In this document: positions 30,540 to 63,488 of the stretch, piece after piece
How the letters are laid out: each line of letters opens with the position of its first letter
Numbering within the stretch: the first letter of the stretch is position 1
IMG/VR virus record: IMGVR_UViG_3300012351_000008
Location: 1 to 64,000 of that record
Length of the DNA stretch: 64,000 bases
Reading direction: 5' to 3' (one strand)
Origin: a virus
Program-made: the position numbers and the translations under genes
The notes under the pieces: generated by a model
Told to the model about the DNA's origin: nothing
The model's database searches: none
The model's input: the letters and a program-made list of their open reading frames with translations, nothing else

Positions 30540-30770
30540 CAAAAAAACCACCTTGCGTTTTCGCTGGTGGCTCACGGGCTCGTCTGTTTGGACAGCCCGG
30601 TAGCATTCCAAAATACCGGGCCGTGGTCCGCTTGATAGCATCGTCGTAGCAAACAATAAAGTAGCGGACCCATGGGCAGTGTAGCAGATTGAGGGGAGCA
30701 AGGCAACCGAGCATGGGGGATGGTTGCCTTGCTGTAGCCGGTAGATGTGTAGTTGGGCGTTGTTGCCTCG
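30540..30770 (-). ncRNA. Structured leader RNA upstream of the endolysin, ending in a GAGCC terminator
   Basis: TGCTATAAT promoter at about 30783-30775, three long hairpins, then a terminator. Confidence 0.5.
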
Positions 30771-30969
30771 AACATTATAGCAAATTACCGGCGCGTACAC
30801 AACCGAAAACGGCGCGTCAGGATGAGCAACAGACGACCTTGCTGAGTTGTGACGACTGATTAGCTTACCGTTCAGAGATGGCTTGTCAGAATGATTGTAG
30901 CGAGAAAGTGGAGAGTGAGGGATGAGAGGGCAATTTTGAGAGAGTGCGAACTATTAGTGTGAAAACCTC

Positions 30970-30998
30970 TTGACAACAGTGTGTACACATTGTATGAT
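30970..30998 (+). promoter_or_regulatory. Promoter with palindromic operator
   Basis: TTGACA-17-TATGAT with TGTGTACACA (30980-30989) in the spacer. Confidence 0.7.
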
Positions 30999-31009
30999 GT
31001 AGACATCAG

Positions 31010-31438
31010 ATGAATGTGAAACAAAGTGAGGCAAGAAATATGGCAAACAGAAAACAGCGCATTAATGTAATGTTAGAAGAGTCTACAGTCGAAGAACTGG
31101 AAAAACAGTATCCAGAGAAACAGCGCAGCGATTTCATTGAACAACAGGTTAGGAGGGGTCTGGGTATGCCAGAAGCAGAAGGGCAAAAAGGATTTGCTGT
31201 ATACGAACGTAGCATTGATGATGGTTTCGGTTCTCAGATTGTCTATGTCAAAGATGGCCGGATAGTGCATCAGTATCTTAGTGCCAGGCAAGGCCACTAT
31301 ACTGGTGATGGCAATCCTGAGTGGATAGGGCAAAAAGTCAACGTCTTGTATGGCAATGGCTTCAAAAAGCTGAGAAGTGCGGCAAGAATTCAAGAAATTG
31401 AGATGGAGTGGTTGCAAGAAGAGGTGCTTGAACCATGA
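31010..31438 (+). CDS. Ribbon-helix-helix N-terminal domain protein
   Basis: QRINVMLEESTVEELE...RSDFIEQQVR; start may be the internal MANRK. Confidence 0.6.
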   Translation: MNVKQSEARNMANRKQRINVMLEESTVEELEKQYPEKQRSDFIEQQVRRGLGMPEAEGQKGFAVYERSIDDGFGSQIVYVKDGRIVHQYLSARQGHYTGDGNPEWIGQKVNVLYGNGFKKLRSAARIQEIEMEWLQEEVLEP

Positions 31439-31650
31439 GTAACGACGAATTGTTTCGTGATGCTGAGTTCATAGCCTCAGAAGCTGAGTTGCACCAACGC
31501 AAGAACGAGCCGCTTAATACAGAATTGCGCTGCTACATTCAGCCGCACACGATGGAACGTCTGCGTGAGATGGTTGAGGAGCGAAAAACGAGTACTGATG
31601 TTGTTGTGAATATGGCGCTACGGGCGCTGTTGTACGATCAAGGATTTTGA
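31435..31650 (+). CDS. RHH-like small protein
   Basis: LRCYI...ERLREMVEER...VVNMALRALL. Confidence 0.5.
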   Translation: MSNDELFRDAEFIASEAELHQRKNEPLNTELRCYIQPHTMERLREMVEERKTSTDVVVNMALRALLYDQGF

Positions 31651-31683
31651 ACGCAGCCAAGCTGCAAAGAAAGGACAGAAACG

Positions 31684-31977
31684 ATGTCAGGTCAATGGAA
31701 TAGTGAAGCACAGCGATACGAAGTATTCTCAACATTAGAGGGTGGCATGGTCCCCACTGGCAAGCCTATGGACTATCAGATGCAGCCAGGGGTTGATTAT
31801 TGTGGTTATTGTAAACACGGTTTTGATGATCAGGGCAATTGTGTTTGCGATGGGCTTGGTGGAGGTCATACGCCTACTTGTAGTTACTGTCACTCCGCCT
31901 ATGATGGCAAAGGCAACTGTAATTGTGATGGCTTCGGCAATGATCCTGAGACGGGCGAGCCATTACCATACGCTTGA
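31684..31977 (+). CDS. Cys-rich protein with a duplicated CxxC..GNCxCDG unit
   Basis: CGYCKHGFDDQGNCVCDG and CSYCHSAYDGKGNCNCDG. Confidence 0.55.
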   Translation: MSGQWNSEAQRYEVFSTLEGGMVPTGKPMDYQMQPGVDYCGYCKHGFDDQGNCVCDGLGGGHTPTCSYCHSAYDGKGNCNCDGFGNDPETGEPLPYA

Positions 31978-32005
31978 GCAACCACAATGCCCACGCTAGT
32001 CTACA

Positions 32006-32040
32006 AGCCGCTTCAGTAGTGAGAAGCGGCTCTTCTATTT
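32006..32040. terminator. Terminator between convergent genes
   Basis: AGCCGCTTC/GAAGCGGCT. Confidence 0.65.
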
Positions 32041-32655
32041 CCCCTGCTCACTCTTCAGATATCTCCTCGCCAGAACCTCTACCGTCACCACAAACGTGAT
32101 CTTAATCACAATCAAGATTCCACCTGCCAACTCACCAAAGACAGTGATCGTGATTCTACTGCTGTACTCCTGCTGCAGTAGTTCATTGGCGACCTGAGAG
32201 ATAGCCAGAAAATACGGTCGCTCTTGCATATGGATAATCTGCGTCTGGACGATATCAATCGTTTGAGGATGCGCAAGAATAGCCCTGACCGCAGCGTCGA
32301 TGCTCACGTAGTTGGTGGTAGAAGAGATTAGTAGTGTTTGTGCGGTGCCAGATAGGTTGCTGTTCTGTAGATTGGCCTGATCACTCTCCCATGTCGGCAA
32401 CATGTTCTGTAGTTCGCTGATTGCCTGAGCATTGTTGTCTGCTGGCCCGTATTGCAGGATAAGTGCGTCTTTGGCGATACGCTGCGAGATGGACTGCTGT
32501 AGCGTAGCGTAGTGGAGGATAGCATCGTTGTTGGAGATGGTGAGTGGAATAGCTTGAAATATCATGATGGCACCAACAGCCACGAATGCGAGCGTTTCGA
32601 TGATGCGGACGAACGCCAGGAAACCTTGAGGTGTACTGAGTAATTTGATCATCAC
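32035..32655 (-). CDS. Two-TM protein with a PilJ/NarX-like extracytoplasmic sensor domain
   Basis: TM - LQQSISQRIAKDALIL helical bundle - TM. Confidence 0.5.
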   Translation of the reverse strand: MMIKLLSTPQGFLAFVRIIETLAFVAVGAIMIFQAIPLTISNNDAILHYATLQQSISQRIAKDALILQYGPADNNAQAISELQNMLPTWESDQANLQNSNLSGTAQTLLISSTTNYVSIDAAVRAILAHPQTIDIVQTQIIHMQERPYFLAISQVANELLQQEYSSRITITVFGELAGGILIVIKITFVVTVEVLARRYLKSEQGK

Positions 32656-32696
32656 ATATTGTTACCTTCCTTGGTTATTTAATGCAATACGGTTAT

Positions 32697-33071
32697 CTAG
32701 TGCAACACGTGGGCCGCGTAGGCTCCGATAATACTCAAAAGAATCGCTATGAAAATACTGACGATGCCAGCCAGGACACGTATTTGCATCTGGTTTTGAT
32801 TTTCCTTCAGTGCCGAGTCACGTTTTTGTGCCTCAACTTCTGAATCGGCTAGTTTTGTGTTGAGATCGGTCAGTTGTGATTTGGCGCTACTGACCTCGCG
32901 CTCGATCCGCTCAACCGTTTCACGAATGCTTCGAAGCTGCAGCTCGTTCTCTTTGGCGGGCACATATTGTTGTAACTGGTTCTGTAACTGCTGCACCATT
33001 TTTTCGAGTGCCTCAATCCGAAAAGTTAGTGTCGATTGGTCCTGCTGCATCCCTTGTTCCTCATGTAACAT
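32697..33071 (-). CDS. Coiled-coil protein with C-terminal TM (XhlA/holin-like)
   Basis: Architecture and position in the lysis cassette. Confidence 0.55.
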   Translation of the reverse strand: MLHEEQGMQQDQSTLTFRIEALEKMVQQLQNQLQQYVPAKENELQLRSIRETVERIEREVSSAKSQLTDLNTKLADSEVEAQKRDSALKENQNQMQIRVLAGIVSIFIAILLSIIGAYAAHVLH

Positions 33072-33126
33072 GCATTATATGATTAAAGTAAACAATCATA
33101 TAATGCATGTATTGTACATATTATAG

Positions 33127-36100
33127 CTAGAACCACACTCGTGCATAATTAGTAAGATTAGGGCCTGTTGTGGCGTCCACGCTGTATAAATAAATTATTC
33201 CGTTTTGTCCCTGGTATCCAGTGGTTGTAACTTTCACAATTGGCACCTGAGAATTAAAGATAGACATTATCTCTGGTAACATGAGTCCCACTGTCGTTCC
33301 CGGCGCAAGTCCAGCATACAACGTCGTCCCCACCAACTCAATCGTGCTATTGCTACCGTACCTCGTGAGCAGGCCATTTCCAAACGCTGTTGCCTGATCG
33401 GTGGTCATACCACTTGCTGTACTATTGAGCGCAGTTTGGATTTGCGCAACGATGCCACTATTGCCTTCAAGCGCGGCCTGTGCTGCCTGACTGCCGCTAT
33501 TCTCGAGGTTGACATTGACGCTAGAAGTGCCGACGTATGTGAAAGAGAGAATAGTGCCAGCAGGAAGTTTAGGAAGCGTGCTATCGTACGAGATGCTCGA
33601 TGAGAGCGGCTGCCAATAGAACTGCCGGTTGTTGTCTACACCCTGATACCCGACCGTCGCCCCCTGTCCATTTACGAGGATGGTCGGCGCGCTATAGACA
33701 GGATACCCAAGCGTCCATGATGTAGTGCTTCCATCAGCCACCTTGATCTCAGTTGGTGGGCTAACGAGTCCAGTTACGCCAGTGATGACCTGTTCATTGC
33801 GGAAAATATCAGCCGAAGAGAGGACCGTCACTTGTGGTAGGTAAAGGAGATACCCGCTGCTATTCGCCGGGTCCGCAACGCTTTGCACTGGGAATGCCCC
33901 TGGACGTGCTAAACGCGGTCCAAAGTGCAGTTGCCGCCACTTGTCCACGTACCAGTAATAGTCTCCGCTCATCTGGACAAGATTGTCCATTTCAGATGAG
34001 TAGTACGCAGCAAACGGTGTAGTGATCGGATGAAGCTGTGAAACTGTCGCCCCGGTGCCGATAGATGGGCCTCTCACGCAGGCCACGAGAGTAAAGAGTT
34101 GAGGCATCATGGATGGGTCACTTGTCGTCATGGTGACTTTTGTGTATAAAACTTGCCCGGTTAAATTGGAGCCTAAAGGCTGTATCCATAACTGGTAGTA
34201 GCGTGATGTACCGCCGTCATTGCGCAATCCGCACTCGCCGGAACCGAGCGCCGACGTGTCCAGGTATGACTGTTTGCAGGTGCCGTCCCAATAGACGCTG
34301 ATCAGCCCTCCTTGCATTGTCACTCTGATTCTGTGGAATGTGCCCCTGGTAAACGTGATAGTGGAAGCGCTTCCAATTAATGACCGTGTGCCACTGGCTA
34401 CTTTGTAGAGTCGTAGTTGATTGGTAAAACCGCCACTAGAGCTAGCATCGTAGACACCTAGCTCATAGTAGTTCGTTGTGCTTACTTCGCGCCATACTAG
34501 TCCACCTGCGTCAGATTCGTCCATATCACAGAGCAGATCCACATCGCTCGTAGAGATAGAGTTGTTAACGTAGAGCCCACCAGAACCACCTGAGAGCGTT
34601 ATACGGCTATTGGTTGTGTCATAGGTAACAGTTGCAGCACTTCCACCGCTCTTGCTGATGTTGGTATAGCTGGCGCTGGTGTTGCTATTGAATAAGTCCT
34701 GCGTGCTGGCTGGCTGATTCGCCCAGTATGTCAGCGCCTCACCGGCTCCGTTGTTCCCTACCGTATGGTAAGTGGAGAGGTCTTGTGTGGTCTGTACAGT
34801 CAGGCTGGTGTTTGTGGGAATGTTGGCATTCCACGCCACATTGTTGCTGGAAACATAACCAACTGGCGAGAGTGAGAGAGCAGGACTGATGCGCGTACCG
34901 GAGACAGTGCCATAATTCCCACAGACACGAGCATACAGACCCATAATAATCGGCGTTGAGATGGGCGGCTTTGAACTAGAAAGGATTATCTGGAAAACAA
35001 GATTGACACTTGAAACAGTAGTTCCTCTTGATAATTGGGGGATTTCAGCGCCGTTTGTACATTGTAGCCAGGATGATCCATTATCAATAGAGGCAAGTAC
35101 AATCGCAGCAGTTTCTGGATGGCCTGTACCATCCAAATCCGACCAGCACACTTGATTGTATCCGCATGTTCCCAATGATGCTAACGAGGTAGATGGGGAA
35201 GTCCAGATGCCAGATGTTGACGCGAGTATTGAAAAGTTCTCAATACTCGCTGTAAACGAGTTTGTCGTATTCGTAGCGCAGCGAAAACCCACTTGTCCGG
35301 CAGATAGGTAGGTATTATCTAAAACGTCTATATCAGGTGTGCTTGAATGATTAAAGTAAACGGTATGTCTGTTTCCTTTCACCACAAGCTTTATGTGATA
35401 GTACGTATTCGCGGCTATCGTTTTCGTTACTTGGGCTATGTTGGTAAACGATCCAACGGTACTATTATTCCAGCTATTATCTGAAAAGCCGACGACTAGC
35501 GTGTTCGCCTGAGAGATTGCTACGTAGTAGGCCATATGATAGTTGGCATTTCCCCAACCAGTTTGCCGGTAAATAATGCCTGTATCACAATAGAAGCTTG
35601 ATGTACTCAGTTTTATATCGGCCTCGATAGTTCCATCCAGAATATATCCTGCAAAATCAAAACGAGACTGACACCACGTTCCTAGAGGGTTAGTACCAGA
35701 GTTTGCACCAGGAGTCATTGAATAGACTCCTCCTGAAGCTGCTTGTGTTCCAGAGTTGGCAAATCCGGCAAAAAATGACTGGAGCGAAAGCGAGGGAGTA
35801 CCGCTCCATGATGAGGCAATAGCATTGGCAGTTCCAGTAAGCGTTAAATCTCCATTTGAATTTGGTCCGATGAGTAGCTGAGTACCCGTATTCCACTCTG
35901 TGCTTGTACCGTATGTCGTAACAATATCACTCACTGTCTGAGCTGCGGCACTATTAATCGTGATCTGCACTTGTTCGAGAGATGGGATAGCAGAAGGATC
36001 AGAGCCACAAGCAAATTGTTCGCGAAGATAGAAAGATAACCCACTCACATTGCCACCAGCGGGCAAACCAGGAAGGGCTTGAGAGTTTTGGCATGTGAGC

Positions 36101-38964
36101 CATGTTGTGTTGTCGTAGGAGGCAAATAATACCATGCCTGGACTTATCCCACCACCGCTTGATGTGGTTGCTGCTGTTGTACCCGGTGGATAAGTTACTT
36201 GAGGCGCGCCTGATGTCGGGAGACTGGCAGTCCATGTAATATTACTATTCTGTACAAGCCCTACCCCTGATAGAGAGTGTGCCGGTGAAATCCTATAACT
36301 TCCTAATGGATCGTAGACCTGTACTACAGATGTGGTAATAGAGTTAGAAACGTAGCCTCCAAATACTGATTGCAGTAGAGGTGGATTGAGTTGTGGAGCC
36401 GTGGCGCTTACGCCAAAAAATGGACTACCACTCTGACTCCCCAGATAACAGTTTTTCCCATACACGGTGTAGGTTCCAGAACTCGAACCTGCCAGGAATA
36501 TATCAACAGCTGTGATGGTTTTTCCATTTAGTCCAGTAAGCGTGATATTACGTGTGTACCATGTATCTTTGGCATGTCCGCTCAAATCTTGCAGACAATC
36601 TACGCTGACACCATTTTGATCATAAATGGCAACTGAATTGTTCAAGCAAAGCGTTCCGATGTGATCGGACAGAAATGACTTATCGCTAAATTCGATATCC
36701 ATTCCGGCTAAGAATTCAGGACTCGTTGAAGAAATCCAGAAGTCATAATTAAAGGTATCGTTCGTCCCAACGGTCATACTTCCAGACCAGATCCTTATGT
36801 AAGCAAGGTTTGCAAAATATTCTCCACTTGTTGCGGTGCCTGTAAAGGGAGAAGAAGCACCGGATGTGCCCTCTTGTGAAATTTGATTTTGCGCAGTTGC
36901 AACCGGGGAAAGGAGAGCTTCAAGTTTCAAAGCACTCTGAGTTGTTGGCGTGAGCATGTTGTTGCTAGCAGTCATATTCGTCAATGTGCCACTACTAAAG
37001 TCACTGGTAACACTCTCAGTCAGCATGAATTGTGTACCGGCACGCACCAACTCTAAATCCCCTGTATTCGATGTGATTGGTGGGGTCGCCGTATTGGGTG
37101 CATAGACAAACGGTGTAGTGGTTGTAGTCGCTACGGTGCCGCTTAACGTACCCTGTCCAAATGTGGCCGGTGTATAATCGGACTCTAACGCGAAGGCCCC
37201 TGTAATGCCCTCCTGGCTAAGTGTCTGTTGCGCAAAGTCGCACACCATATCGCCAGCAGTCCAGTTGAGGTAGTTCGTCTCGTTGGCCCGTTTATCAACA
37301 TCATAGTGATGGTCCATTATCGTTAGTTGATGCTCAAGTTGTGCTGCACCACCAGCAGCCGGTTTGCTCACTTTGTCAGAATTGACGTAGCCGGTGTAGA
37401 GCAACCCTTGATTTGAGTCTGAGAACATGACAGGCATACCGCGCTGATAGGACAGCGTACCAGCAGTATCCTCGACGGTAAGTGTCAGGATCGATCTTTG
37501 GTCGAGCGCATCGGCAAGTGTGAATGACTGATCGCGCACGGGAGCCCCACTGCCACTCTGGAAACTAGATGCCCCAACGAGATTTGAAAGACCTGCAGGC
37601 GTACTAATCATCGTAGGCGCAATGGTGGTGCCATCGTTATATACGCCTTGGCTTGCACTGTTAGAAACATAGATAGTGAAAACGTTGCTTGCCCAGGCCG
37701 TCGTGGTATTAAGTACAAACGCATCCATATACAAAGTGTCACCTGCGACAAATTGCCAGAGCGAAGCCAAAACTGATGGAAGTGTATAGGTTGTTTTCGT
37801 AGTTGAGAATGTTTGACTGGTAATTGAAGAGATGGCAATTGGATAATATGTACCATCCATTGTACGCCGGGACCAACGAGCATAGACCGCGCCGCCGCTC
37901 ATACTTGTTCCTGATTTGGACAGCGTGAAAATACCCGACCAGGAACCGGCAACGATAGTATTACCTGCCAATGAGATAGACCAGCCCTTGCCGGTTGGCG
38001 CTGGAAGGGCAGACGTTGATCCTGGTGTTCCTCCCTGGCTTGTCAATTCCACATAAGCATTCGTGCCCGAGCTCGGAGCAGTGACGGTGAAACTTGTTTC
38101 TGTCCCACCTGAAACCTGAGACATCTGATCAGATTGAGTTAGTCCACCTATGGCGGAAGCCACATTCGATGCGTAAAATACAGCACTTGTTTGCAAGGAT
38201 GCGGACGCCGGGATAGCGCGCGTGCTTGTGAATATAAGAGAGGCTGATGCGGGAATGGTTCGTATACTTGTCGGCGCTAGAAGTGATGCATTAGCAGGAA
38301 TGGTTCTTATTGGTGTGCTCACGAGAGCAATAGCGGCAGGAATGGTTCTGGTAGAGGTGGTAGTACTGATATAACCAGGGGTTGTTATTGAAACGCTTGT
38401 ATAACCAAGCGTGGAACTACTTGACATGTGGACGCGTACATTGCCAGTTGTGCTATTTGTGGTGATATTGAGAGTTACATCTGTATAGGTTTTATCTCCG
38501 GTGGCAAAGGTATTACTTGCAGAAGCCCCGCTAGCCGTAACCGTAAACTGTGTATAGGCTGTGCTTATAATTGTTTGACTGGTGGCGATGCCCTCCGCAA
38601 TGAGTGTGTAGGTGCCCCCGCTTGAACGCTGATAGGCTCGACAGTGGATATCACAGGTAAAGGTGCCTGTGGTAGTTGTCTCAAGTTCAACAGTCCAGGT
38701 CCAAGTGCCACTTTGAAAGTGGTTTCCCTCGATAAGGGTCGTATCCTCTAGCCACCCATGATTAGAGGGTGAGGGTTGCGAACCTGCGCCCGTTTGTGCT
38801 GATGCGTCTCCTTGCGACCATAACTCTACCCACCCGGTTGTACCAGAAGTGAGGTTAGTATTCAGATTGACTGCCGTTGCGCCCGTTGATGGATTTTCTA
38901 ATAGTTTATTTGCTGTACTCAAACTGGAAGCAACGTTGTTTGGGTAGAGTGTAAGAGCCGTCAT
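33127..38964 (-). CDS. Large tail-tip / host-recognition protein (1945 aa)
   Basis: Beta-rich, concanavalin-like inserts (YHIKLVVKG; FHRIRV), YYWYVD..RQLHF hub-like motif, located after the tape measure. Confidence 0.75.
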   Translation of the reverse strand: MTALTLYPNNVASSLSTANKLLENPSTGATAVNLNTNLTSGTTGWVELWSQGDASAQTGAGSQPSPSNHGWLEDTTLIEGNHFQSGTWTWTVELETTTTGTFTCDIHCRAYQRSSGGTYTLIAEGIATSQTIISTAYTQFTVTASGASASNTFATGDKTYTDVTLNITTNSTTGNVRVHMSSSSTLGYTSVSITTPGYISTTTSTRTIPAAIALVSTPIRTIPANASLLAPTSIRTIPASASLIFTSTRAIPASASLQTSAVFYASNVASAIGGLTQSDQMSQVSGGTETSFTVTAPSSGTNAYVELTSQGGTPGSTSALPAPTGKGWSISLAGNTIVAGSWSGIFTLSKSGTSMSGGAVYARWSRRTMDGTYYPIAISSITSQTFSTTKTTYTLPSVLASLWQFVAGDTLYMDAFVLNTTTAWASNVFTIYVSNSASQGVYNDGTTIAPTMISTPAGLSNLVGASSFQSGSGAPVRDQSFTLADALDQRSILTLTVEDTAGTLSYQRGMPVMFSDSNQGLLYTGYVNSDKVSKPAAGGAAQLEHQLTIMDHHYDVDKRANETNYLNWTAGDMVCDFAQQTLSQEGITGAFALESDYTPATFGQGTLSGTVATTTTTPFVYAPNTATPPITSNTGDLELVRAGTQFMLTESVTSDFSSGTLTNMTASNNMLTPTTQSALKLEALLSPVATAQNQISQEGTSGASSPFTGTATSGEYFANLAYIRIWSGSMTVGTNDTFNYDFWISSTSPEFLAGMDIEFSDKSFLSDHIGTLCLNNSVAIYDQNGVSVDCLQDLSGHAKDTWYTRNITLTGLNGKTITAVDIFLAGSSSGTYTVYGKNCYLGSQSGSPFFGVSATAPQLNPPLLQSVFGGYVSNSITTSVVQVYDPLGSYRISPAHSLSGVGLVQNSNITWTASLPTSGAPQVTYPPGTTAATTSSGGGISPGMVLFASYDNTTWLTCQNSQALPGLPAGGNVSGLSFYLREQFACGSDPSAIPSLEQVQITINSAAAQTVSDIVTTYGTSTEWNTGTQLLIGPNSNGDLTLTGTANAIASSWSGTPSLSLQSFFAGFANSGTQAASGGVYSMTPGANSGTNPLGTWCQSRFDFAGYILDGTIEADIKLSTSSFYCDTGIIYRQTGWGNANYHMAYYVAISQANTLVVGFSDNSWNNSTVGSFTNIAQVTKTIAANTYYHIKLVVKGNRHTVYFNHSSTPDIDVLDNTYLSAGQVGFRCATNTTNSFTASIENFSILASTSGIWTSPSTSLASLGTCGYNQVCWSDLDGTGHPETAAIVLASIDNGSSWLQCTNGAEIPQLSRGTTVSSVNLVFQIILSSSKPPISTPIIMGLYARVCGNYGTVSGTRISPALSLSPVGYVSSNNVAWNANIPTNTSLTVQTTQDLSTYHTVGNNGAGEALTYWANQPASTQDLFNSNTSASYTNISKSGGSAATVTYDTTNSRITLSGGSGGLYVNNSISTSDVDLLCDMDESDAGGLVWREVSTTNYYELGVYDASSSGGFTNQLRLYKVASGTRSLIGSASTITFTRGTFHRIRVTMQGGLISVYWDGTCKQSYLDTSALGSGECGLRNDGGTSRYYQLWIQPLGSNLTGQVLYTKVTMTTSDPSMMPQLFTLVACVRGPSIGTGATVSQLHPITTPFAAYYSSEMDNLVQMSGDYYWYVDKWRQLHFGPRLARPGAFPVQSVADPANSSGYLLYLPQVTVLSSADIFRNEQVITGVTGLVSPPTEIKVADGSTTSWTLGYPVYSAPTILVNGQGATVGYQGVDNNRQFYWQPLSSSISYDSTLPKLPAGTILSFTYVGTSSVNVNLENSGSQAAQAALEGNSGIVAQIQTALNSTASGMTTDQATAFGNGLLTRYGSNSTIELVGTTLYAGLAPGTTVGLMLPEIMSIFNSQVPIVKVTTTGYQGQNGIIYLYSVDATTGPNLTNYARVWF

Positions 38965-38975
38965 ACTTTTCCTGC

Positions 38976-39347: not shown

Positions 39348-39375
39348 GTCCTACTCAAATCAAACAATAATTGCA

Positions 39376-39416
39376 AATAAAAAAGCCGATGGCTCTTGTG
39401 GCTCATCGGCTCGTTG
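39376..39416 (-). terminator. GAGCC-element terminator
   Basis: acGAGCCgatGAGCCacaaGAGCCatcggcTTTTTT. Confidence 0.75.
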
Positions 39417-39467
39417 AAATGTGTAAAACTAATCTCTATTATGGCATACAGAATCAATCCTTGGGTT

Positions 39468-40040: not shown

Positions 40041-43000
40041 CTAAAAACCCCTCATGCCGGTACTGAGCCTTACATTCTGACTTAGTGGTACTCCAATCGC
40101 TGAAATAATGGCTTGACTATCAAGCATGACGGTAATGTTGGCTGTTTGCGGACCGCTACCACCTCCCAATGAACTATCACCACCACCTACGCCCGCTCCA
40201 GTTGACATAGGGTACACATTCGAACCGCTTGGAAGCATTACTAGCTCAGGTCCAGCCTCACCGACAAGGGCTAAACCAGATGCGCCTCCAGGCTGAAAGT
40301 TCTGTACGCCGCTTGCAAAGCCAGGCAGGCCAAACGTACTGATTGAGATACTCGGCATAGGAGGCCAGTGGAATTCAGGTAAAGCAGGCCAGTGAAACTC
40401 AGGAAGTGACGGCCACTTAAATTCTGGAAGCGCAGGCCATTTGATTTCAGGGAGTGACGGCCACTGAATGGATGGCAACGAAGGCCATGTAAACGTTGGC
40501 AACGAGGGCCAGGTGATTGTAGGTAAAGAAGGCCAGGTGATAGTAGGCAACGAGGGCCATTGAATCGTTGGCAGAGAAGGCCAGGTGATAGTAGGCAACG
40601 AGGGCCAATGAATCTCAGGGAGCGAGGGCCATTTAATCTCTGGCAACGAGGGCCACTTTATCTCTGGCAAGGAGGGCCACTTTATCTCTGGCAGTGACGG
40701 CCATTTGATTGCCGGTAACGTGGGCCACTTTATCTCTGGCAGTGACGGCCACTTGATTTCAGGAAGTGACGGCCACTTTATCTCTGGCAAACCGGGCCAC
40801 TTGATTTCCGGTAGGCTAGGCCATTTTATTTCAGGAAGTGACGGCCATTTGATCTCAGGCATCGCAGGCCAGTGAAACTCTCCACCGGCACCAATACTCT
40901 GTGCGCCACCGGAACTATCTAATTTGGCGTTGTGTACCAGTACATTATTCGCGTAGTAGGTGTGTGAGCCATCAACCGTGATGTTATATACCTGGACAAT
41001 ATCACGCATCTGGATAGCGATAAGCGTGCATGTGCCATCAACTGTGTGGACATGATCGCCAACCTGAAGGGGAGTTGTGATAAGATTGGGATTCTCCTCT
41101 TTTGTACTTTCAGGGGAAAGTGATTTCCACCCCTGCGTGGTTGCGAGAGGATGTGAGTCTGTTGTCGTAAGTGTATTGCCATCAGAAAACGTTAGCTCAT
41201 AAACCTGCTTCTGAGGCAACACAATACGAGCTAGTATAGTTGTAGGTACTTGTGCCGTGCCATCATACGCAAGAACCTGCTCACCTTCTTGCAGCGTTTC
41301 AATTGGTTTCTCTGTACCATTAGCCATAAGTACGCGTGTGCCAGCAACAAAACAACCACCGGCAAAGGAACCACCTGCACCACTGGCACCGCCTCCACCA
41401 GTCAGATTATTCCATAACTGTCCTATACCTCCAAAGGTTTGACCTGCACCACCAAACATCTGACCGATATCTTGCCCAATTGCTGAACCTTGAAAGGCTT
41501 GCCCTATACCACCAAAATCAATACCTTTACCGGGGCCAAATAATGCACTACCACTGCCTCCACCACTACCACTACCTCCACCGACGAAATTGCTAAAGGC
41601 GCTGCCTATACTGTTTCCAACTTTACCCCAATCACCCTGCTGAATTGCTGATCCTATATCTTGCGCGTATGTTGGCGGGTTGGTATTATAATTTGTCATT
41701 GCCTGTTCATCGGCCCGCGTAGCCTGATCATTGTTATACTTTACTGCCTCTTGCTGTGGCGATACATAATGTGAAGCATTATAGGACGACTGTCGCTGTT
41801 GCAAGAACTTTTGAGCCGCGCCAGCATCATCCTGTGATTGAAGATAATTGGGATCGAGTGCGTCAGCCATTATTGTTGCGGTTTGCGCTTGTGATTGTAG
41901 GGTTTGCGCTGCAACTGTTTGAGGAAGTTGCGCCATTTGCTGTTGATAGTTTATTTGCGCTTGTGCTTGCGGTCCTGGTCCTTGGAATGGTTCAGGGAGT
42001 CCAAGCATTTGAGCACCCTGGTTAATCCATCCTTCAGTACCACTTTGAATCATCGACATTCCAAGTCCCTGCATACCAGGAACAGTCATTGAAACCAATC
42101 CACCCACTACTTGAAGGTTGTTTGCAATATCACTTGTCAACCCACCTAAAAACCCCCCAACTCCGCCAGCGCCACCCTGGTTCATCTGATAATTTATCGC
42201 GTCTAAGGTCGGCATTATCTGCTTGCCGAAACTTTCAGAAAACGTTTCTCCTGCTTGCTGTGCTGACTGCCCGAGCGCATCGACGCTACCCGTGAATGTG
42301 CCCATGCTATGCGCCGCTGGCCCCTCAGCGATTGCCGCAGCATCATAGATACCCTGCCCTACTTGCTGGACAGCCATACCAACCATTTGTACCGCCATGA
42401 GTGGCATGATAAACTGGCTTACGCTGTTGACAACACCGCCAACATCACCGAGTGCCCCCATGAGTGTTTCACCTAAACTCATGGATTCCATTGCCTTGCC
42501 CGCACCTGCTACCGCTCCGCTTGTTTCTCCTGCGGCCTTCCCTGCACTTGCTATTATTCCGCCTGTTTCTCCTACAGACTTACCCGCATCTTCCGCTGCG
42601 CTACCCATCGCATTGAACTGATCAGTAAATGCCTGCGTCTCCCCGCGTGATTCACTAAAAACCTGCCCTGTTGACTCTGCATTCGTGTTGAGTTTATTCA
42701 GCGATTCACCGGCAACATTGGCATTTTGAGCCATGTCATGAAGCGCCGCAGTATTCTCCCCACCGATGCTACTGTTAAAATCACTCCATGTTTGCCCTGT
42801 CTCGCCCAAGTAACTATTAATCATGGAAAAGGGGTAAGGGTTAGATAACGCATCCTGAAAGACGCCCATGTTTTCGGCAAAGGTATCCAGGCCAAATTGC
42901 TTGGGGTCGAACGCCTGGCTAACTTCGTGGAGAGAGTCTGCAAACTGTGGCAACATCGGGGCCGCTTGCGAGAGTGAATCCCCAAGTTGCGCGAAGTTAT

Positions 43001-44982: not shown

Positions 44983-45366
44983 TTACGAATACGTGATTGC
45001 GCCTGTGCCTGTGAAGCTGAAATCTACCGTTTCTGCGTTCTGGACATCGACGTTTGGGTCAATGCCCGTAAGTATTGCCGACCCAGTAAATGCGTGCGGG
45101 GTACTTTGAATAGTGAACGTCATCGAAACCGTTGAATTGAGTAGCGCAAACAAATTTGTTTGCGCCGTATCGCTCGAATCGATAAAGGCGGTGATCTTTC
45201 CAGACCAGGATTTGAGTGTGGCGAGGTTCACCGTCCAGTTGCCCGAAGCCCCAAAAGGCGTGACATCTTTTGTTGCACCTTTTAGTGATAATGTCCACTT
45301 AGATGCATCGGTGAATGCAGTTGCGGCTTCTGACACAGAAGCCCCGATACCTGCGAGTGCAGCCAA
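44983..45366 (-). CDS. Major tail tube protein
   Basis: TTG start with AAGGAG RBS; WTLS...DVTPF...SWSG...FSFTGTGA. Confidence 0.8.
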   Translation of the reverse strand: MAALAGIGASVSEAATAFTDASKWTLSLKGATKDVTPFGASGNWTVNLATLKSWSGKITAFIDSSDTAQTNLFALLNSTVSMTFTIQSTPHAFTGSAILTGIDPNVDVQNAETVDFSFTGTGAITYS

Positions 45367-45407
45367 TTTTTTACTCCTTCTTAAAGGTAAAGGAGGATAT
45401 GGCACAT

Positions 45408-45466
45408 AAAAACAAGCCATACCTCGAAATGTCAATTTTCGATCGGTATGGCCTCTAGGACTCCGG
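45408..45466 (-). terminator. GAGCC-like element terminator
   Basis: cgGAGTCctaGAGGCCatacc...ggtatggcTTGTTTTT. Confidence 0.6.
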
Positions 45467-45494: not shown

Positions 45495-45707
45495 TTATCT
45501 CCGGTCAGCGATATCTGACCACAAAATGTGATGTTCCATATGACAGCCGCGACACCAGCACCATTGTCCACCTGATACACTCGCTAACTGTGTAAGACTT
45601 GCCGTGTCAATACGTGTGAGCAGCTTCTTTGTCTGCTTGCAAAAGATCGGTGTGCGTTCTAGTTGAGTGCTGGCTCCATTATACTGTATACTTGTGTTTG
45701 TTGCCAT
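45495..45707 (-). CDS. Small zinc-ribbon protein, Mu Com-like
   Basis: PIFCKQTKKLL...WCWCRGCHMEH. Confidence 0.5.
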   Translation of the reverse strand: MATNTSIQYNGASTQLERTPIFCKQTKKLLTRIDTASLTQLASVSGGQWCWCRGCHMEHHILWSDIADRR

Positions 45708-47450: not shown

Positions 47451-47526
47451 ATAAAAAAACGCCACAACCGTTGCAGGTGTGGCGTGATAGCTCGTAGACT
47501 TCCCTCTATTGCTCATAGTATAGCAT
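47451..47526 (-). promoter_or_regulatory. Internal promoter followed by a GAGCC-element terminator
   Basis: CATGCTATACTatgAGCAAT, then acGAGCTatcACGCCac...gtggcgTTTTTTT. Confidence 0.65.
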
Positions 47527-54379: not shown

Positions 54380-54427
54380 ACAAAAAACACCACAACTAGC
54401 GAACTAGTGTGGCGCAATGGCTCGTAA
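54380..54427 (-). terminator. GAGCC-element terminator
   Basis: acGAGCCattGCGCCac...gtggtgTTTTTT. Confidence 0.7.
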
Positions 54428-54638: not shown

Positions 54639-54819
54639 AAAGAAATATCTCCTGTAGTGTGTTAATTGCCGGGAAAAGACGAAGAGATAATAGGCATGTA
54701 AAAGCACGTAAAGTTGCTTGTAGAGCCGTTTTGTGGTATACTTGAGGTACATATTGTTGAGGCCCACAGGTACTCGAAATACCTATGAGCCGGTGATACA
54801 TCTGGATTGGAGATGCATC

Positions 54820-56157: not shown

Positions 56158-56187
56158 CAGAATTTATCAGTCATAATTATTCTATAT

Positions 56188-57348: not shown

Positions 57349-57387
57349 CAAATGAATACTCCTTCCACGATGTGGATGAGTGACGAA

Positions 57388-58278: not shown

Positions 58279-58288
58279 CGGTGCTTGT

Positions 58289-58522
58289 TTATTCCTCTCG
58301 TAAGGCACGCCTTTGTGCTCGTTGTGCCTGCCTGGCGAGCCGATCAACTTGCGGCTCGCTGGAATCGCCACGAACAGGTTCGAGATTCTCCAATGCTTCT
58401 AGACGCTCCTCTAGATCGTCTATTCTCTCCTCAAGTGAGTTAAGCGTGGGCGGTTCGAGTACTAACGGATCAACGGAAATAGACTCTGACTTCACCTGAT
58501 CTTCTTTCTTTGTCATAAACAT
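58289..58522 (-). CDS. Small hypothetical coiled-coil protein
   Basis: AAGGA RBS. Confidence 0.55.
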   Translation of the reverse strand: MFMTKKEDQVKSESISVDPLVLEPPTLNSLEERIDDLEERLEALENLEPVRGDSSEPQVDRLARQAQRAQRRALREE

Positions 58523-58531
58523 TTTCCTTTA

Positions 58532-59866
58532 TCATGTGAGCATGCTAGCGCCAACAGAATATGTACAGCTATTTGCGTTGTTTGCAACAACCTTGACGCG
58601 CCATGTATGCGACAACACATCGGACGCAACCGAGTTAGCAGCGGCGGTCAGCCCGGGATACACCACATAGACATTCGTGCTATTGGTGATCACTGCTGCC
58701 CCAGTCAATTGAGCAACATACTTGCCTGACGCCACATCTTTCGCGTCAATTTCTAGCGTTACTGAACCTGTGCCAACAACAGTCATATCCAACACGACAC
58801 GCACACCGCGCCCACTGGTATTGATCTGGTCAACGGTGGTTTGTGTCGTGGTAAAGGCTGCCGAGGGGATAAGCACAAGATCATTGCCACCACTCACTTT
58901 CACCTGAAGGTTTCCACCTGCATCAACCGTTGCCTGCCGCCACGGATACGTCCCGTCTGAAATCTGAATGTTGTTTCCACCAGTATCAGCCAAGTTAACG
59001 GTATTGACTGTCAACACGCCACTACTCACGGGAGCCACAGCCCCGGCTATGGCGGTAAACTTGATCGGAAGGATGTTCACATCAGGACCGGGCGCACCGG
59101 TCAAGGTTGAGCCTACAACATTGTCAATTCCATCAATACACCAGTAGATGTTATCGCCTTTGTAGTAGATGAAATACTTGTGAACACTGCTATCCTGGGG
59201 TTGCTTACCACTTCCGGTAGCGGCAGAGAGGTCTTGTACTGCCACCCTTGTCCCTGACTGATAGGTGACACACATCATCTTGCCGGTAACACCGACCTCG
59301 AATCCACAGGCATTCGTGAGAGGAGCCGCCGCCGTAGGGCTGCCTGGACTGGTGCCCATTCCCCAGAAGAAGTACTGATTGGCGACGATAGGCCAAACGA
59401 TGTTAACACCCGTATAGAACAGCAGCCAGCCAGGGTTAGCTGGCGGGAATGATACCGCACTTTCCAGATACGAGTAGCCTGAAATGGTTGTTCCCGTACC
59501 CAATTGCGTGTTTGTTAAAGTATTACTGGCAGCTACTCCACCTCCCGCAGCTACAGGGGCAAGCCATTTATTGGTGATGTCCAAAGTTGCCGTATCAAAG
59601 CCATCCTGGAAGAGTTGCGATGGCTCCAATGCCACGCGCAACTCACCAGCCGCCATGATACTTGCACTTGCACTTCCGGTAGCCGTTCCAGTAATGGTGG
59701 TTTGTGTAATCATGGGTGCCGACTTCTGCCCACTAGCACCCGCCGTATTGTCGGCAACAGGCGTACCCAATTGAACCGGGAGTACGCCCGCACCGGGTGC
59801 CCACCCGGTAGCGCCTGCACGAGCACCCGCACTATCAGTCGGTGTTGGACCGGATGAAAGTGTCAT
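58532..59866 (-). CDS. Virion structural / decoration protein
   Basis: Directly after the capsid gene; paralog of 51172..52500. Confidence 0.65.
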   Translation of the reverse strand: MTLSSGPTPTDSAGARAGATGWAPGAGVLPVQLGTPVADNTAGASGQKSAPMITQTTITGTATGSASASIMAAGELRVALEPSQLFQDGFDTATLDITNKWLAPVAAGGGVAASNTLTNTQLGTGTTISGYSYLESAVSFPPANPGWLLFYTGVNIVWPIVANQYFFWGMGTSPGSPTAAAPLTNACGFEVGVTGKMMCVTYQSGTRVAVQDLSAATGSGKQPQDSSVHKYFIYYKGDNIYWCIDGIDNVVGSTLTGAPGPDVNILPIKFTAIAGAVAPVSSGVLTVNTVNLADTGGNNIQISDGTYPWRQATVDAGGNLQVKVSGGNDLVLIPSAAFTTTQTTVDQINTSGRGVRVVLDMTVVGTGSVTLEIDAKDVASGKYVAQLTGAAVITNSTNVYVVYPGLTAAANSVASDVLSHTWRVKVVANNANSCTYSVGASMLT

Positions 59867-59910
59867 AACGTACTCCTATCTCACTGTATCTGAATGATAC
59901 ACGTAATACA

Positions 59911-61668
59911 CTAGTTAAGACTTATTCCAGTGATTAAACTCCATCCACCTAAAAACTGGTTGATGAGCGTAATGTTGATGTAAGCAGCGTATCCCCACTG
60001 CGTCCAGTGAGACTGGTCAGGCGGGTATTCTACAGCGAACATCTCACGATTGACACCAACGCGGAATGGAGGCTTGTCAATGGCGGATACAGGGAAGGGG
60101 ATGGTAAAGGAGCCGATCATGATTGTGCCTTGCATCAGGTAGGGCAGCATAATCACATCAATCACTTTGCCTGTGGTCTGATTGATGTATTTGGTCACGC
60201 GCTGGCCTGCTGTCAACTGGGACATGCCATCACCGATCTGCTGAGTGACGCGGAAGTTCGTACCTGCTGCCACAAGATTAGAGAGCTTTTTGTGATCCTT
60301 GATGCTAACAAACATGTACTCGGGATCAGCGTGGGCACTGAGGTACATATTTTCCAGGACAGTATCAATATCAGCAAGGGCAAGTGCGCCATTGGTCGCC
60401 GATGGCATCGCAATAATTGGCGTTTCACCAGCGATACCGAGTGAGCCGGGAGTGCCATAGGTGTTGTAGATGAGGGCCTGCGCGCCATCAATAGTCAATG
60501 GCATGTTCAACGTGTTGGCATCAGTGGACTTGACCACAATAGCCGTGTTGGTAGCCGTGACCACTGTAGAATAAGCCGTACCAGAAGTAAGGGCCGCAGC
60601 CAGTCCAAGGGTAACGGTGAAGTAGCCTTGTCGGATAGTGTTGGCAGGCTGGTTCAGTGTGTTCGCGGAGCCACCAATGAACTGGGTTGCACTACCCTGG
60701 AGCCACATGGCAGAGTTAGCTGGCTGTGTTGCACCAATGCCTGCGTACACCTGATACTTCGTAGCCGATGGTACACAGTTGATATTCATCGTGATGGTAC
60801 TGGTCGAGCCTGTGGTCACAATGGACGTGGCAACTGCTGTTGCACCACCAAAGGCCAGTGTTTCACCGTTTGCATTGAGCGCTGTCACAAGAATCCAGTA
60901 CGTACCAGCGGTTAACAATCCGCCAGTGGTGGCAGTAGTAAGACCGCCTACTGGAGGTGGGGACCATAACCGCTGTCCTGAGTTAATGAGCCAGAACTCT
61001 TCCTCTTGCATCAGGGCCGGGATAAGTTTAGCCGCAACGGTTGCGCGCACATCCCCCTGCCACATTTTGCCGTAGATCTCACTCTCGAACGATACCACGT
61101 CACGGTATGCAAGCAACTTGGCGACGTTGGACAGGCTAGCGAACTGATAGGAAAGCGCCGATGGTGTGCCAAACTGCTGTACAGCGGCACCTGCGACGGT
61201 TGGACCTGTACCACCGAAGTAGTCCAATACTGTACGCCAGTTGATGGTATCAATGCCGGGCATTGGGTCACGTGGCGTCATGTTGAGTAGCGGGGTCATC
61301 TGTGGAATGACAAACTTGGCGGCAGGCTCTAAGTAGTAGCCCGTGAAGTTGGCATTGTTGCCAGCAAAGGTACCATCACGAGTGATTTCACCACCTTGCA
61401 ATGCATCAATGGTTTCCTTGTTGAAGTTCGTAATGCCCTGGTAGGTATTTGTTCTGACTCGTTCAATGATGTCAGGCGAGAAGTTCGCACCCTCCTGATA
61501 CGTTTGTGCTCCACTCATGCGTTGCGCGGCGAAGCGTTCGGCTTGAGCCGCGAGCACGTCACGATCAGCGACCATGCCTTCCTCAATCACACCTACCGGG
61601 TCTTTGGTGTTGCCTGATGCGATTCGCGCCCCTTCCGGTAACGAATCCTTTGGTACAGTGATAGCCAT
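59911..61668 (-). CDS. Major capsid protein with inserted beta domain
   Basis: Follows the protease; TPLLN..PR, ALMQEEEFWLI, DGA, ENMY..DP...KKLS pattern. Confidence 0.8.
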   Translation of the reverse strand: MAITVPKDSLPEGARIASGNTKDPVGVIEEGMVADRDVLAAQAERFAAQRMSGAQTYQEGANFSPDIIERVRTNTYQGITNFNKETIDALQGGEITRDGTFAGNNANFTGYYLEPAAKFVIPQMTPLLNMTPRDPMPGIDTINWRTVLDYFGGTGPTVAGAAVQQFGTPSALSYQFASLSNVAKLLAYRDVVSFESEIYGKMWQGDVRATVAAKLIPALMQEEEFWLINSGQRLWSPPPVGGLTTATTGGLLTAGTYWILVTALNANGETLAFGGATAVATSIVTTGSTSTITMNINCVPSATKYQVYAGIGATQPANSAMWLQGSATQFIGGSANTLNQPANTIRQGYFTVTLGLAAALTSGTAYSTVVTATNTAIVVKSTDANTLNMPLTIDGAQALIYNTYGTPGSLGIAGETPIIAMPSATNGALALADIDTVLENMYLSAHADPEYMFVSIKDHKKLSNLVAAGTNFRVTQQIGDGMSQLTAGQRVTKYINQTTGKVIDVIMLPYLMQGTIMIGSFTIPFPVSAIDKPPFRVGVNREMFAVEYPPDQSHWTQWGYAAYINITLINQFLGGWSLITGISLN

Positions 61669-61681
61669 TATTTATCCTTAT

Positions 61682-63340
61682 TTATTGTGTGCGGCCCCGC
61701 GTCGGCTGTGCGGCCAGTGCAGCAGCGGCCACTTGTTTTTCAATCGTGTCGAGTGCGCCCATGCGTTGCAACCGGTTCAGCACGTCAAGCGTTGTTTCCT
61801 GCTGTGGTTGCGATAGTTGTGATGGGCGTGGGTCGGTAGCAAGCGTTTTATCCACTGGACGAGCGCCGTTGAGAATCGGGCCTCCGCTTGCAGGCTGCCT
61901 GGCTATCACTTCCACCTGACCTTTTACTTCCGCCAACGCGGAACGTACTTCGTCGAGGCTGGATTGAGTTGGGACAGTCTCAAGCCGGGTCACAATCGTC
62001 TCAAGGCTCGTTTGAATGGGGGAGAAATCTATCTCAGGAGTATGTGAACGGGCAAAGGTGCCAGCTATGGCATGCATCCTGGTGATTGGCGTGTGTAATT
62101 CTTGAGTGATGCGCGTAAGCAGGACTTCAGCAATACGATCAGCCATCTTGCCTGCATCCTGATCAGGGTCTAGTGTCTTATCAGCACCGGGCAGGTCCAC
62201 GTCATTATCGTTGTCGGGGTCCATAGCGTTGCGCATTGCAATACAATCAGGGCATCCACACGTTTTCATAAGTTGCATCGCGCTTTGTAGGGCACTATCG
62301 CGAGCACCATGTAAGGCTGATTGTGTGTCAGAAGAGAGACGTGCACCCGCACGCTCTACCTCTGGCTCTTTTGGTGTTGCGATGACAGCAGGCTCAACTG
62401 GTGGTGGTGTCTCGGGCTCAGTCACGTCGATAAGATCAGTCAGACCATCGGCGCGACAAATGGAAAGGCCGTGTCCATCAGGATTGCTTGCATTATCCAC
62501 AACTGAGAGTTCAGCCAGCTCATAGGAGGTCAGGTAAGGATAGGTTTGCCCGTTCCTCTCGATACTCTCCCACGTGTAGGGCTTGCCAGCGCCAACACTC
62601 AGTCCTGATAGTACGCCCTCCTGAATCTTTGTCCAGGTGTCAGGAGCACCTTTAGAGACACGCAACCTGACAATGACTTGTTTTTGCTCATCATCAAACT
62701 GGACACCAACGCCTTTACCTACAGCCTTCCTGTCGTGCATCTCGCGTACATTGGCAGTGCGCTCAATCCACTTCTGAAAAGCTTTCTTTGAGGCTTCGTA
62801 GGAAAATATCGTGTTAAAACTGTCTACGGCCTCGGAGGTTGCAATGCCCTCCACTTCCCACTTCTGATCGTCAATGCGCGTGATCGGGACATAGAGCATG
62901 GGGCACTCTGGCATAACGGCGCGTGTGGTATCATCTTTGCTGGTATCAGGAGTATCAGTCATTGATTCATGATTGTCGGTGGATTCTACTGTCCGGCTAC
63001 CATCATCTTTTTTGCCTGTTTCCCAACTATCCGGCAACTTCCATCCGTTCGCTTTTGCTTTACCTCGGATACATGCTCGAACAGCATCAGGATTATCTGC
63101 GTGTCCTGCTAAACTTGCAGCGTTATCAACGTCTTTCTGATTTCTCACCGGAAATGAGCGATGTGGACCACAAAACGCTGATGCTGGAATAGCATCTCTT
63201 TCCTTCTGTGGAATGTATCGCTCAATACCTTCTTCATTCTCAGGCCATACGGCTACACGCTCAACCTCTGGCGTTGCGGTAACGGGCTCAATAGGTGGTG
63301 CTACTGTCTGCTGTTCTGTATCGGTGTCAATTTGTGCCAT
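61682..63340 (-). CDS. Prohead protease / scaffold fusion
   Basis: VEGIATSEAVDS...VREMH...W.KI.EGVLSGLSVG...ELSVVDNASNP; GAGG RBS before ATG 63340. Confidence 0.85.
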   Translation of the reverse strand: MAQIDTDTEQQTVAPPIEPVTATPEVERVAVWPENEEGIERYIPQKERDAIPASAFCGPHRSFPVRNQKDVDNAASLAGHADNPDAVRACIRGKAKANGWKLPDSWETGKKDDGSRTVESTDNHESMTDTPDTSKDDTTRAVMPECPMLYVPITRIDDQKWEVEGIATSEAVDSFNTIFSYEASKKAFQKWIERTANVREMHDRKAVGKGVGVQFDDEQKQVIVRLRVSKGAPDTWTKIQEGVLSGLSVGAGKPYTWESIERNGQTYPYLTSYELAELSVVDNASNPDGHGLSICRADGLTDLIDVTEPETPPPVEPAVIATPKEPEVERAGARLSSDTQSALHGARDSALQSAMQLMKTCGCPDCIAMRNAMDPDNDNDVDLPGADKTLDPDQDAGKMADRIAEVLLTRITQELHTPITRMHAIAGTFARSHTPEIDFSPIQTSLETIVTRLETVPTQSSLDEVRSALAEVKGQVEVIARQPASGGPILNGARPVDKTLATDPRPSQLSQPQQETTLDVLNRLQRMGALDTIEKQVAAAALAAQPTRGRTQ

Positions 63341-63392
63341 ACATACCTCAGTTAGCGGTGTGGCACAACTGCCGCCGCCGCGAAAATGTGCA

Positions 63393-63488
63393 ATAAAAAA
63401 CACCATCGATTGTGGCTCGATGGCGCGTGATTTGTGTTTGTTTAGTTCTTAGCCCTGATGAGGGTTATCATTGCTTGCAGTATAGCAT
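63393..63488 (-). promoter_or_regulatory. Internal promoter followed by a GAGCC-element terminator
   Basis: CATGCTATACTgcaAGCAAT, then acGCGCCatcGAGCCac...gatggtgTTTTTT. Confidence 0.65.

Follow-up and report, generated by a model that had tools for sequence, protein, structure and literature searches.

The DNA considered here is the first 64 kb (the window) of a 79,961-bp viral record, IMG/VR IMGVR_UViG_3300012351_000008, which is rated 80% complete and in which terminator-like hairpins ahead of the late-gene modules are overlapped by a short tandem GAGCC element, hereafter the tag. Comparison of these sites, and of the small proteins encoded near them, makes it on balance probable that the tandem GAGCC is an RNA binding site for small phage zinc-ribbon proteins of the Com family, which would act on the terminators of the late modules. 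What appears to be new is the proposed use of Com-type RNA recognition as a distributed terminator switch. A preliminary description of this DNA had proposed that a single zinc-ribbon protein of 70 amino acids (aa) reads all six tags of the window; the tag has stood up to closer analysis, the Com likeness of that protein has done so in part, and its role as sole reader has not.

The tag has the consensus ACGAGCC-N3-G(A/C)GCCAC. All six elements quoted in the preliminary description were recovered at their reported positions on the minus strand, two of them degenerate or variant: S1 (ACGCGCCATCGAGCCAC, 63412..63428), S2 (ACGAGCCATTGCGCCAC, 54409..54425), S3 (ACGAGCTATCACGCCAC, 47479..47495, degenerate with three mismatches), S4 (45446..45466, of the variant type CCGGAGTCC-TA-GAGGCCATAC), S5 (ACGAGCCGATGAGCCAC, 39398..39414) and S6 (ACGAGCCCGTGAGCCAC, 30567..30583). 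A seventh copy, S0, lies beyond the window at 68350-68366, ahead of the packaging genes. Late genes occupy the minus strand, starting at about 68.4 kb and ending at 29.5 kb, and all seven tagged terminators are intergenic and on the late strand. A search of the whole 79,961-bp record with the strict pattern and up to one mismatch returned five matches, S0 among them, every one on the reverse strand; the forward strand and a reversed-pattern control gave none. By our own calculation about 0.02 matches are expected by chance (14 specified bases, at most one mismatch, both strands of the 64-kb window). Of the minus-strand terminator candidates from 30.5 to 68.4 kb, five have at their stem base a tandem with at most one mismatch, which occurs at 0.4% of random positions, and the offset of the tag from the stem base is either 0 or 7-9 nucleotides (nt).

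The proposal of the preliminary description would have been refuted by a motif that is equally common at non-late terminators. This is not so: the motif is absent from the other terminator-like sites, at 414, 1366, 13424, 19938 and 23663 on the plus strand and at 72107, 29366, 29133 and 15719 on the minus strand. Untagged terminators are found at operon ends, and strong ones (72107, 29366 and 29133, minus strand) bound the late region. At its downstream end, past the endolysin gene, this region is closed by two untagged tandem terminators (window 29129-29366), one of them very long-stemmed with a folding energy of -27.5 kcal/mol.

At all seven sites the hairpin whose 5′ arm the tag overlaps has a folding energy of -15 to -20 kcal/mol and is followed by five to seven U residues; for the six sites of the window the z-scores against shuffled sequences are -2.7 to -5.9. 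This agrees with the earlier account of a hairpin and U-tract overlapping the tag, to which can be added that the tag always covers the base of the 5′ arm. Judged by folding energies, U-tracts and strand-specific stems, the tagged hairpins look like real intrinsic terminators, and because the stems contain G-U pairs they would fold only in the sense RNA. On the minus strand of the window they lie at 63395..63426 (S1; U6, -15.4 kcal/mol, z-score -4.4), 54382..54415 (S2; U6, ahead of a small gene and a tailspike-like gene), 47453..47485 (S3; U7), 45408..45455 (S4; hairpin and U-tract, -20.1 kcal/mol), 39379..39412 (S5; U6, z-score -5.9, ahead of a 123-aa gene and the 1945-aa tail-tip gene) and 30541..30573 (S6; U7, ahead of the amidase endolysin gene at 29510-30520). 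The hairpins adopt two geometries. In class A (S0, S1 and S5) the first pentamer forms the stem base and, together with the spacer, the 5′ arm, which pairs with GGCUU, and the second pentamer lies in the loop; in class B (S2, S3, S4 and S6) the first pentamer is single-stranded and the stem base is made of the second pentamer plus AC. The sole constant of both geometries is the position of the tag over the base of the 5′ arm. The G-U pairs of the stems, together with a pentamer spacer that varies from 2 to 6 nt in the related phages described below, favor recognition of the tag as single-stranded RNA. A conserved alternative antiterminator hairpin 5′ of the tag was looked for and not found.

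The sites are mostly not stops within one late operon, as had been supposed, since S0, S1, S3, S5 and S6 each have an extended -10 promoter of their own upstream. On the minus strand of the window these promoters lie at 63479..63487 (TGCTATACT, 52 nt 5′ of the tag of the S1, or protease/capsid, unit), 47517..47525 (S3; TGCTATACT, 23 nt), 39438..39446 (S5; TGCCATAAT, 25 nt) and 30774..30782 (S6; TGCTATAAT, about 190 nt, a layout repeated in one of the related phages, G002); S0 has TGCTATACT 23 nt 5′ of its tag, and S2 and S4 have no evident promoter of their own. The extended -10 therefore falls 23-52 nt before the tag in four of the seven units (S0, S1, S3 and S5), and in the related phages it falls 8 to 32 nt before it. 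The promoter consensus upstream of the tags, TGnTATAnT, is of the host type, and the same type, usually with a TTGACA -35 element, drives the early genes without an intervening terminator. The U-tract and the start codon are no more than 20-40 nt apart, too little to accommodate a further promoter. What is repeated before the modules is thus mostly a promoter-leader-terminator unit, that is, a promoter-proximal attenuator. Over the units as a whole the distance from -10 element to tag takes values of 8, 9, 11, 12, 14, 23, 25, 32, 52 or about 190 nt, and the tag is therefore tied to the terminator and not to the promoter. A reading of the reverse complement as a sigma-54 promoter was discarded by eye for its wrong spacing.

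Two leaders have features of their own. That of S6 extends for about 190 nt between promoter and tag (window 30584-30782), and its counterpart in G002 (35917-36103) shares the block GGAATGCTACCGGGC at the same place; this leader may be a structured RNA. In another relative, G005, a tRNA-Ile gene (anticodon AAT) lies between the extended -10 promoter and the tagged terminator (42770-42865, locus L019), and the terminated leader transcript would then be a tRNA precursor. The idea that the tag pairs with a tRNA was abandoned, since only G005 has such a tRNA and it is located between promoter and tag.

The preliminary description had pointed to related phages as the place to look for the motif, and it is widespread there. 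We refer to the phage of the window as G000, to its relatives as G001 to G005, to two unrelated carriers as G009 and G010, to further carriers as G007, G012, G016 and G017, and to metagenome loci by L-numbers. The related contigs share either head genes (G005 and G001) or tail genes (G002, G003, G001 and G004) with G000, at 33-76% protein identity, and all carry tagged terminators on the gene strand, the stems of which differ. G005 has six or seven such sites, G002 four, G001 three, and each of the remaining contigs one or two; at many metagenome loci, too, the unit is retained with a different stem. The variant type, CAACCGGAGCC-N3-6-GAGCCATA, is conserved ahead of the tail-tube-like gene at more than a dozen metagenome loci, with compensatory changes in its base pairs. 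In IMG/VR, a pattern scan also placed the unit in an unrelated group of 28-63-kb contigs, among them G009 and G010; in the phage collection this group matches nothing but human-faecal phage records. There the unit consists of TGCTATAAT, a short leader, GAGCC-N3-GAGCC, a hairpin and U6, and in G009 and the provirus G010 it stands ahead of a 558-aa open reading frame (ORF), probably a terminase, and of scaffold/capsid genes and tail genes. Two peculiarities of the related loci may be mentioned. In G003 three more tandem AGCCTTG repeats, without a hairpin, directly follow the tagged terminator (94303-94325; about 9530 in L008) and may be an extra binding array. The tail-tube homologue of L037 spans about 1,000 nt (2378-3414) for about 230 aa, as it also does in L059, L061, L063 and L066, which suggests an insert of about 300 nt, perhaps an intron.

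The candidate readers of the tag are small proteins with a common signature, C-x2-(C/T)-x-K-(K/R/L)-L ... (W/Y)C-x2-C-(K/H)-x-E-H, of which the second knuckle, WCxxC(H/K)xEH, is conserved. The 70-aa ORF (45495..45707, minus strand; PIFC..TKKLL.RID ... WCWCRGCHMEHH) is present in G000 and G001. A protein of 95-97 aa is encoded just upstream of the first late unit in G000 (68414-68701, beyond the window), G005, G002 and G007. Shorter members occur in G009 and G010 (51 aa), in a further carrier, G012 (52 aa), and in G003 (65 aa). The likeness of the 70-aa ORF to Mu Com that had been suggested from its sequence can be followed through significant intermediates. The G009 protein matches Mu Com directly (BLASTP, E 2e-4), and a cluster 98% identical to it carries the JGI name phage FluMu protein Com; it also matches the G012 protein (E 3e-9), which in turn matches the 70-aa family profile (probability 83%, E 9e-6) and the G003 protein (E 1e-7). 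A hidden Markov model built without the 95-aa family matches the 97-aa protein of G002 (E 2.5e-5), and that protein matches the 95-aa ORF of G000 (E 1e-8). No Com-like match was found in 945 kb of other viral DNA, and a tblastn search with the G009 protein against the phage collection gave none. Two further proteins deserve mention here: G001 encodes a second Com-like paralogue, a small zinc ribbon with a C-terminal helix, near its tagged units (about 29200-29438), and in G012 a 119-aa zinc-ribbon and coiled-coil protein is encoded directly upstream of the unit (6613-6972).

The distribution of the proteins follows that of the sites. Every unit-bearing lineage that is represented by a record of 36% completeness or more encodes a small Com-like protein too, as do the unit-bearing fragments G016 and G017. 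Co-occurrence of the 70-aa gene with the motif, the association looked for in the preliminary description, was judged at variant-unit loci with enough upstream DNA, and where the surroundings of the tail-tube gene are syntenic, no locus has the 70-aa gene without the variant unit or the unit without the gene. Both are missing from L042, L044, L051, L055, L068 and the corresponding site of G002, so the gene is gained or lost together with the adjoining copy of the tag. The same comparisons make the 70-aa protein an unlikely reader of all six tags. G002, which is rated 100% complete, and G005 have four to seven tags and no 70-aa homologue, and because the 70-aa gene itself lies behind a tagged terminator, S3 (47.5 kb), it cannot be the first trigger. 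A better candidate for that role is the distant 95-97-aa paralogue, whose gene lies just before the first unit. Since G002 and G005 have tags and the 95-97-aa paralogue without the 70-aa ORF, two readers are likelier than one.

The published RNA specificity of Com agrees with the tag. In vitro selection (systematic evolution of ligands by exponential enrichment, SELEX) gave GAG(N)2CC as the core and NGAGNNCC(N)2-3GAGNNCCNN as the bipartite motif, and electrophoretic mobility shift assays found binding to CC(N)2-3GAG (PMC6483171). In GAGCC-N2-3-GAGCC the junction of the tandem is exactly CC-N2-3-GAG, matching the Com target. Our full-text literature search found no paper on Com-like proteins at terminators or on Com-like antitermination, and a paper on Tn916 antitermination, which describes the canT RNA, makes no mention of GAGCC or orf6 (PMC11658703).

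The S4 unit appears to have a second layer, in which the start codon of the tail-tube-like gene (probably TTG, 45364-45366) is masked by a predicted translation-inhibition structure (45350..45403, minus strand). Downstream of the U-tract in all 12 S4 orthologues there is a copy of the 5′ arm, GCCATAYCC, directly followed by an anti-Shine-Dalgarno (anti-SD) segment that pairs with the SD; the GCCAT portion of this copy is also able to base-pair with the start codon plus GC. In G000 the copy is GCCATATCC (45395-45403, minus strand), which can pair with either the terminator 3′ arm or the start-codon region, and the anti-SD:SD hairpin is at 45374-45395 on the same strand. The terminator 3′ arm is complementary to the downstream copy at 6-8 of 8 positions across these orthologues, with covariation in L009 (GGGGTGGC with GCCACCCC) and L057 (GATATGGC with GCCATATC), and the SD is paired in 11 of the 12. 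A start-hiding structure with an adjoining upstream Com-like gene is seen at S4 only and at none of the other six units. As modeled, S4 would be the com-mom logic of phage Mu with a terminator added. In both systems the gene of a small zinc-ribbon protein (here the 70-aa ORF) directly precedes its target, CC(N)2-3GAG occurs in the RNA site as two GAG..CC half-sites beside a hairpin, which in Mu is remodeled by binding, and the start codon is hidden in a structure, which in Mu is the mom translation-inhibition structure and at S4 is a predicted one. Unlike Mu, which has one Com target and no terminator, the present phage has seven sites per genome fused to intrinsic terminators before structural and lysis modules, and its proteins are not matched by the Pfam Com model, differ in the first zinc knuckle and form two diverged paralogues.

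It should be noted that the longest-ORF starts of two late genes fall within terminator hairpins (window 63332-63406 and 45364-45435). For the protease/scaffold gene behind S1 the true start is likely to be the ATG at 63340, which has a GAGG ribosome site. By eye, TTGTGCCA (63361-63368), located after the S1 U-tract, exactly complements TGGCACAA (63332-63339), which overlaps this probable start codon, and the pairing could be a second start-masking helix.

We present a hypothetical model for the operation of the switch. The strong host-type promoters would fire constantly and, in the absence of the protein, the nascent RNA would fold into the terminator and transcription would halt before the module. 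A Com-like protein would grip both GAGCC half-sites as they emerge from the polymerase; with one half-site forming the base of the 5′ arm, the bound hairpin could not close and the polymerase would read through. The 95-aa paralogue, made from the operon upstream of the first unit, would probably open the ACGAGCC-type units one by one. Read-through at S3 would allow the 70-aa paralogue to be made, and this protein would probably open the variant unit S4, where capture of the 5′ arm would leave the 3′ arm free to take up the downstream copy, unmasking the ribosome binding site and start codon of the tail-tube-like gene. Such unit-by-unit action would account for the separate tag at each internal terminator, for the movement of the tag with the stem rather than the promoter, and for the lack of tags on the end terminators. 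Our broader proposal is that Com-family proteins acting as site-specific antiterminators on a GAGCC-tagged regulon constitute a widespread, undescribed late switch, elaborated here into a two-step cascade from the 95-aa to the 70-aa protein with a combined terminator and translation lock at S4; this we advance tentatively, as slightly less likely than not.

Several observations weigh against a Com-family reader. Direct profile comparisons are weak, both between the 95-aa and 70-aa families (E 0.042) and between the combined family profile and Mu Com (E 0.069). The Pfam model of Com (PF10122, Zn_ribbon_Com), which matches Mu Com at 2.7e-9, does not match the 70-aa, 95-97-aa, G009, G012 or G003 proteins even at E 10. 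The first knuckle of the 70-aa family is C-x2-T, with one Cys in place of the CxxC seen in G009 and G012, although a nearby His could serve as the fourth zinc ligand, and the ligand set is degraded further in the 95-aa proteins of G000 and G005. An AlphaFold model of the 95-aa protein (mean predicted local distance difference test score, pLDDT, 88) yielded nothing informative in Foldseek against PDB or in VIA-align. The register of the half-sites is GAG-CC in the tag and GAG-NN-CC in the SELEX core. Several unit-bearing fragments, all at most 35% complete, have no detected Com-like gene, and L253 and L254 have a 95-aa homologue with no intact unit right after the gene. The gene and its site adjoin each other, so part of their co-occurrence could be plain linkage. 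A loose pentamer pattern with two mismatches shows no enrichment by itself (53 matches vs 42.6 expected); the signal resides in the strict copies and their placement. NCBIfam was uninformative for the Com-like set, and the G012 protein matches Cys_rich_KTR (5.7e-7) instead of the Com model.

The most serious rival explanation, which we nevertheless consider unlikely, is that Com-like proteins bind the tag but act after transcription, on translation or RNA stability, and that the terminators are constitutive attenuators or insulators. Com is documented only as a translational activator (PMC6483171), the conserved structure at S4 hides both the SD and the start codon, and the sequence after the S1 U-tract may, by eye, pair with the start region. 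However, the ribosome binding sites of the ACGAGCC-type units lie outside the tagged hairpin, and no conserved masking was noticed there, although this was not examined systematically; moreover, with strong promoters 8-52 nt before strong terminators and only the short interval noted above between terminator and start codon, the modules would have no other route of expression than read-through.

A little less likely again is a tag that serves as a nut- or put-like loading site for processive antitermination, mediated by the RNA itself or by some other factor of phage or host, with the Com-like genes as linked passengers. As with lambda N/nut and HK022 put, a promoter-near element in the nascent RNA would decide terminator read-through; there is one tag per promoter, promoter-proximal like nutL and put, and the final terminators (29366 and 29133, minus strand) are unusually strong or doubled. 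Yet nut and put are structured, are not fused to a terminator and act processively over kilobases, whereas the tag measures just 13-17 nt and by itself shows no conserved structure. A processive system would need neither the overlap of the tag with each stem nor copies at the promoterless S2 and S4, and it would leave to coincidence both the agreement with Com specificity and the parallel gain and loss of tag and Com-like genes. The PR′-tR′ region of lambda is a related arrangement, having a strong late promoter, a terminator within about 100 nt that silences the late genes, and a regulator gene, Q, that directly precedes the first unit. The Q protein recognizes promoter DNA at a fixed position and acts a single time, processively, in contrast to a tag that moves with the terminator and is repeated for each module; the variable distance from -10 element to tag (8 to about 190 nt) does not accommodate a Q-type fixed binding position in a promoter or pause region. 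Of the Q families, PF03589 was searched for in G000-G005, without a match.

Parallels to the Com-family switch are also found in bacterial operons controlled by LicT/SacY at their ribonucleic antiterminator (RAT) sites, by HutP and by ANTAR proteins such as EutV, which acts on several terminators of one locus. In these systems, too, there is a constitutive promoter, a leader and an RNA site over the 5′ arm of a terminator, one protein has several sites, and action is local and not processive. They differ in having unrelated folds, in stabilizing an alternative hairpin or binding repeats in another manner, and in controlling catabolic operons rather than phage late genes. A search for ANTAR, the one of these domains that was covered, gave no match above the cut-off in five genomes; its power is low, since the controls gave none either.

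We regard as improbable the view that the tag is a DNA operator for a repressor or roadblock that silences the late genes in the prophage, as at the stoperators of mycobacteriophages. The resemblance is real in that both are short asymmetric motifs in many copies, intergenic and oriented with transcription in a temperate phage (probably so here), and the tags lie downstream of promoters. Stoperators, however, are DNA sites bound by the repressor, with no terminator attached; the tag goes with an RNA hairpin, 8 to about 190 nt from the promoter, the 2-6-bp spacing of its pentamers misfits a fixed protein dimer on duplex DNA, and the terminators already provide silence. Least probable is a tag without a trans-acting reader, either the relic of a terminator cassette spread by duplication or recombination, for which the high mosaicism of these genomes and the gain and loss of cassettes as units might speak, or a promoter for a phage RNA polymerase, given that the tag is nearly invariant while stems and loops have fully diverged, at 33-76% protein identity and in unrelated phages, and that no phage RNA polymerase or sigma factor was found and the promoters upstream are of the host type. 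The searches behind the last point detected no T7-type RNA polymerase, for which the control genomes gave no match either, and no sigma-70 (region 2) gene, and a role of the tag as a phage polymerase- or sigma-dependent promoter was rejected on the same grounds, the upstream promoters being host-type extended -10 elements.

If the switch operates as proposed, Com, for decades a one-gene curiosity of Mu, would gain a general role in the late-gene program of many uncultured phages, and a simple, portable, protein-operated terminator switch would join sigma factors, activators, Q, N and put as a means of late timing. It would also help to account for the many small phage ORFs that are Com-like or annotated as Cys-rich. 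All components are small, with a tag of 13-17 nt, a hairpin and a protein of 50-95 aa, which makes the switch directly testable, and they could serve as a synthetic regulatory device.

The phage itself is uncultured, siphovirus-like, highly mosaic and without a close cultured relative, and it is probably temperate. No DNA similarity to cultured phages was found, and the best identity of its large terminase to that of any cultured phage is only about 43%. The late genes are arranged in the order small and large terminase, probable portal, protease/scaffold, head and neck, tailspike-like genes, tail completion, tail tube, tape measure, the 1945-aa tail-tip protein and the amidase endolysin. Pfam and PHROGs searches with about 40 ORFs around the units identified no known regulator, and no Rfam family matched the window at gathering thresholds. 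Candidatus Sulfotelmatobacter was considered as host and not adopted, as one 5.8-kb contig of a metagenome-assembled genome (L037), found in a scan of such contigs, is too weak a basis for naming it. The second gene after the first tagged terminator, beyond the window at 67845-68060 of the genome (L010 5845-6060), is a 71-aa Cys-rich ORF with an arginine-rich stretch, RRGIWRRLLPPRITR, and its counterpart in G005 is 61% identical.

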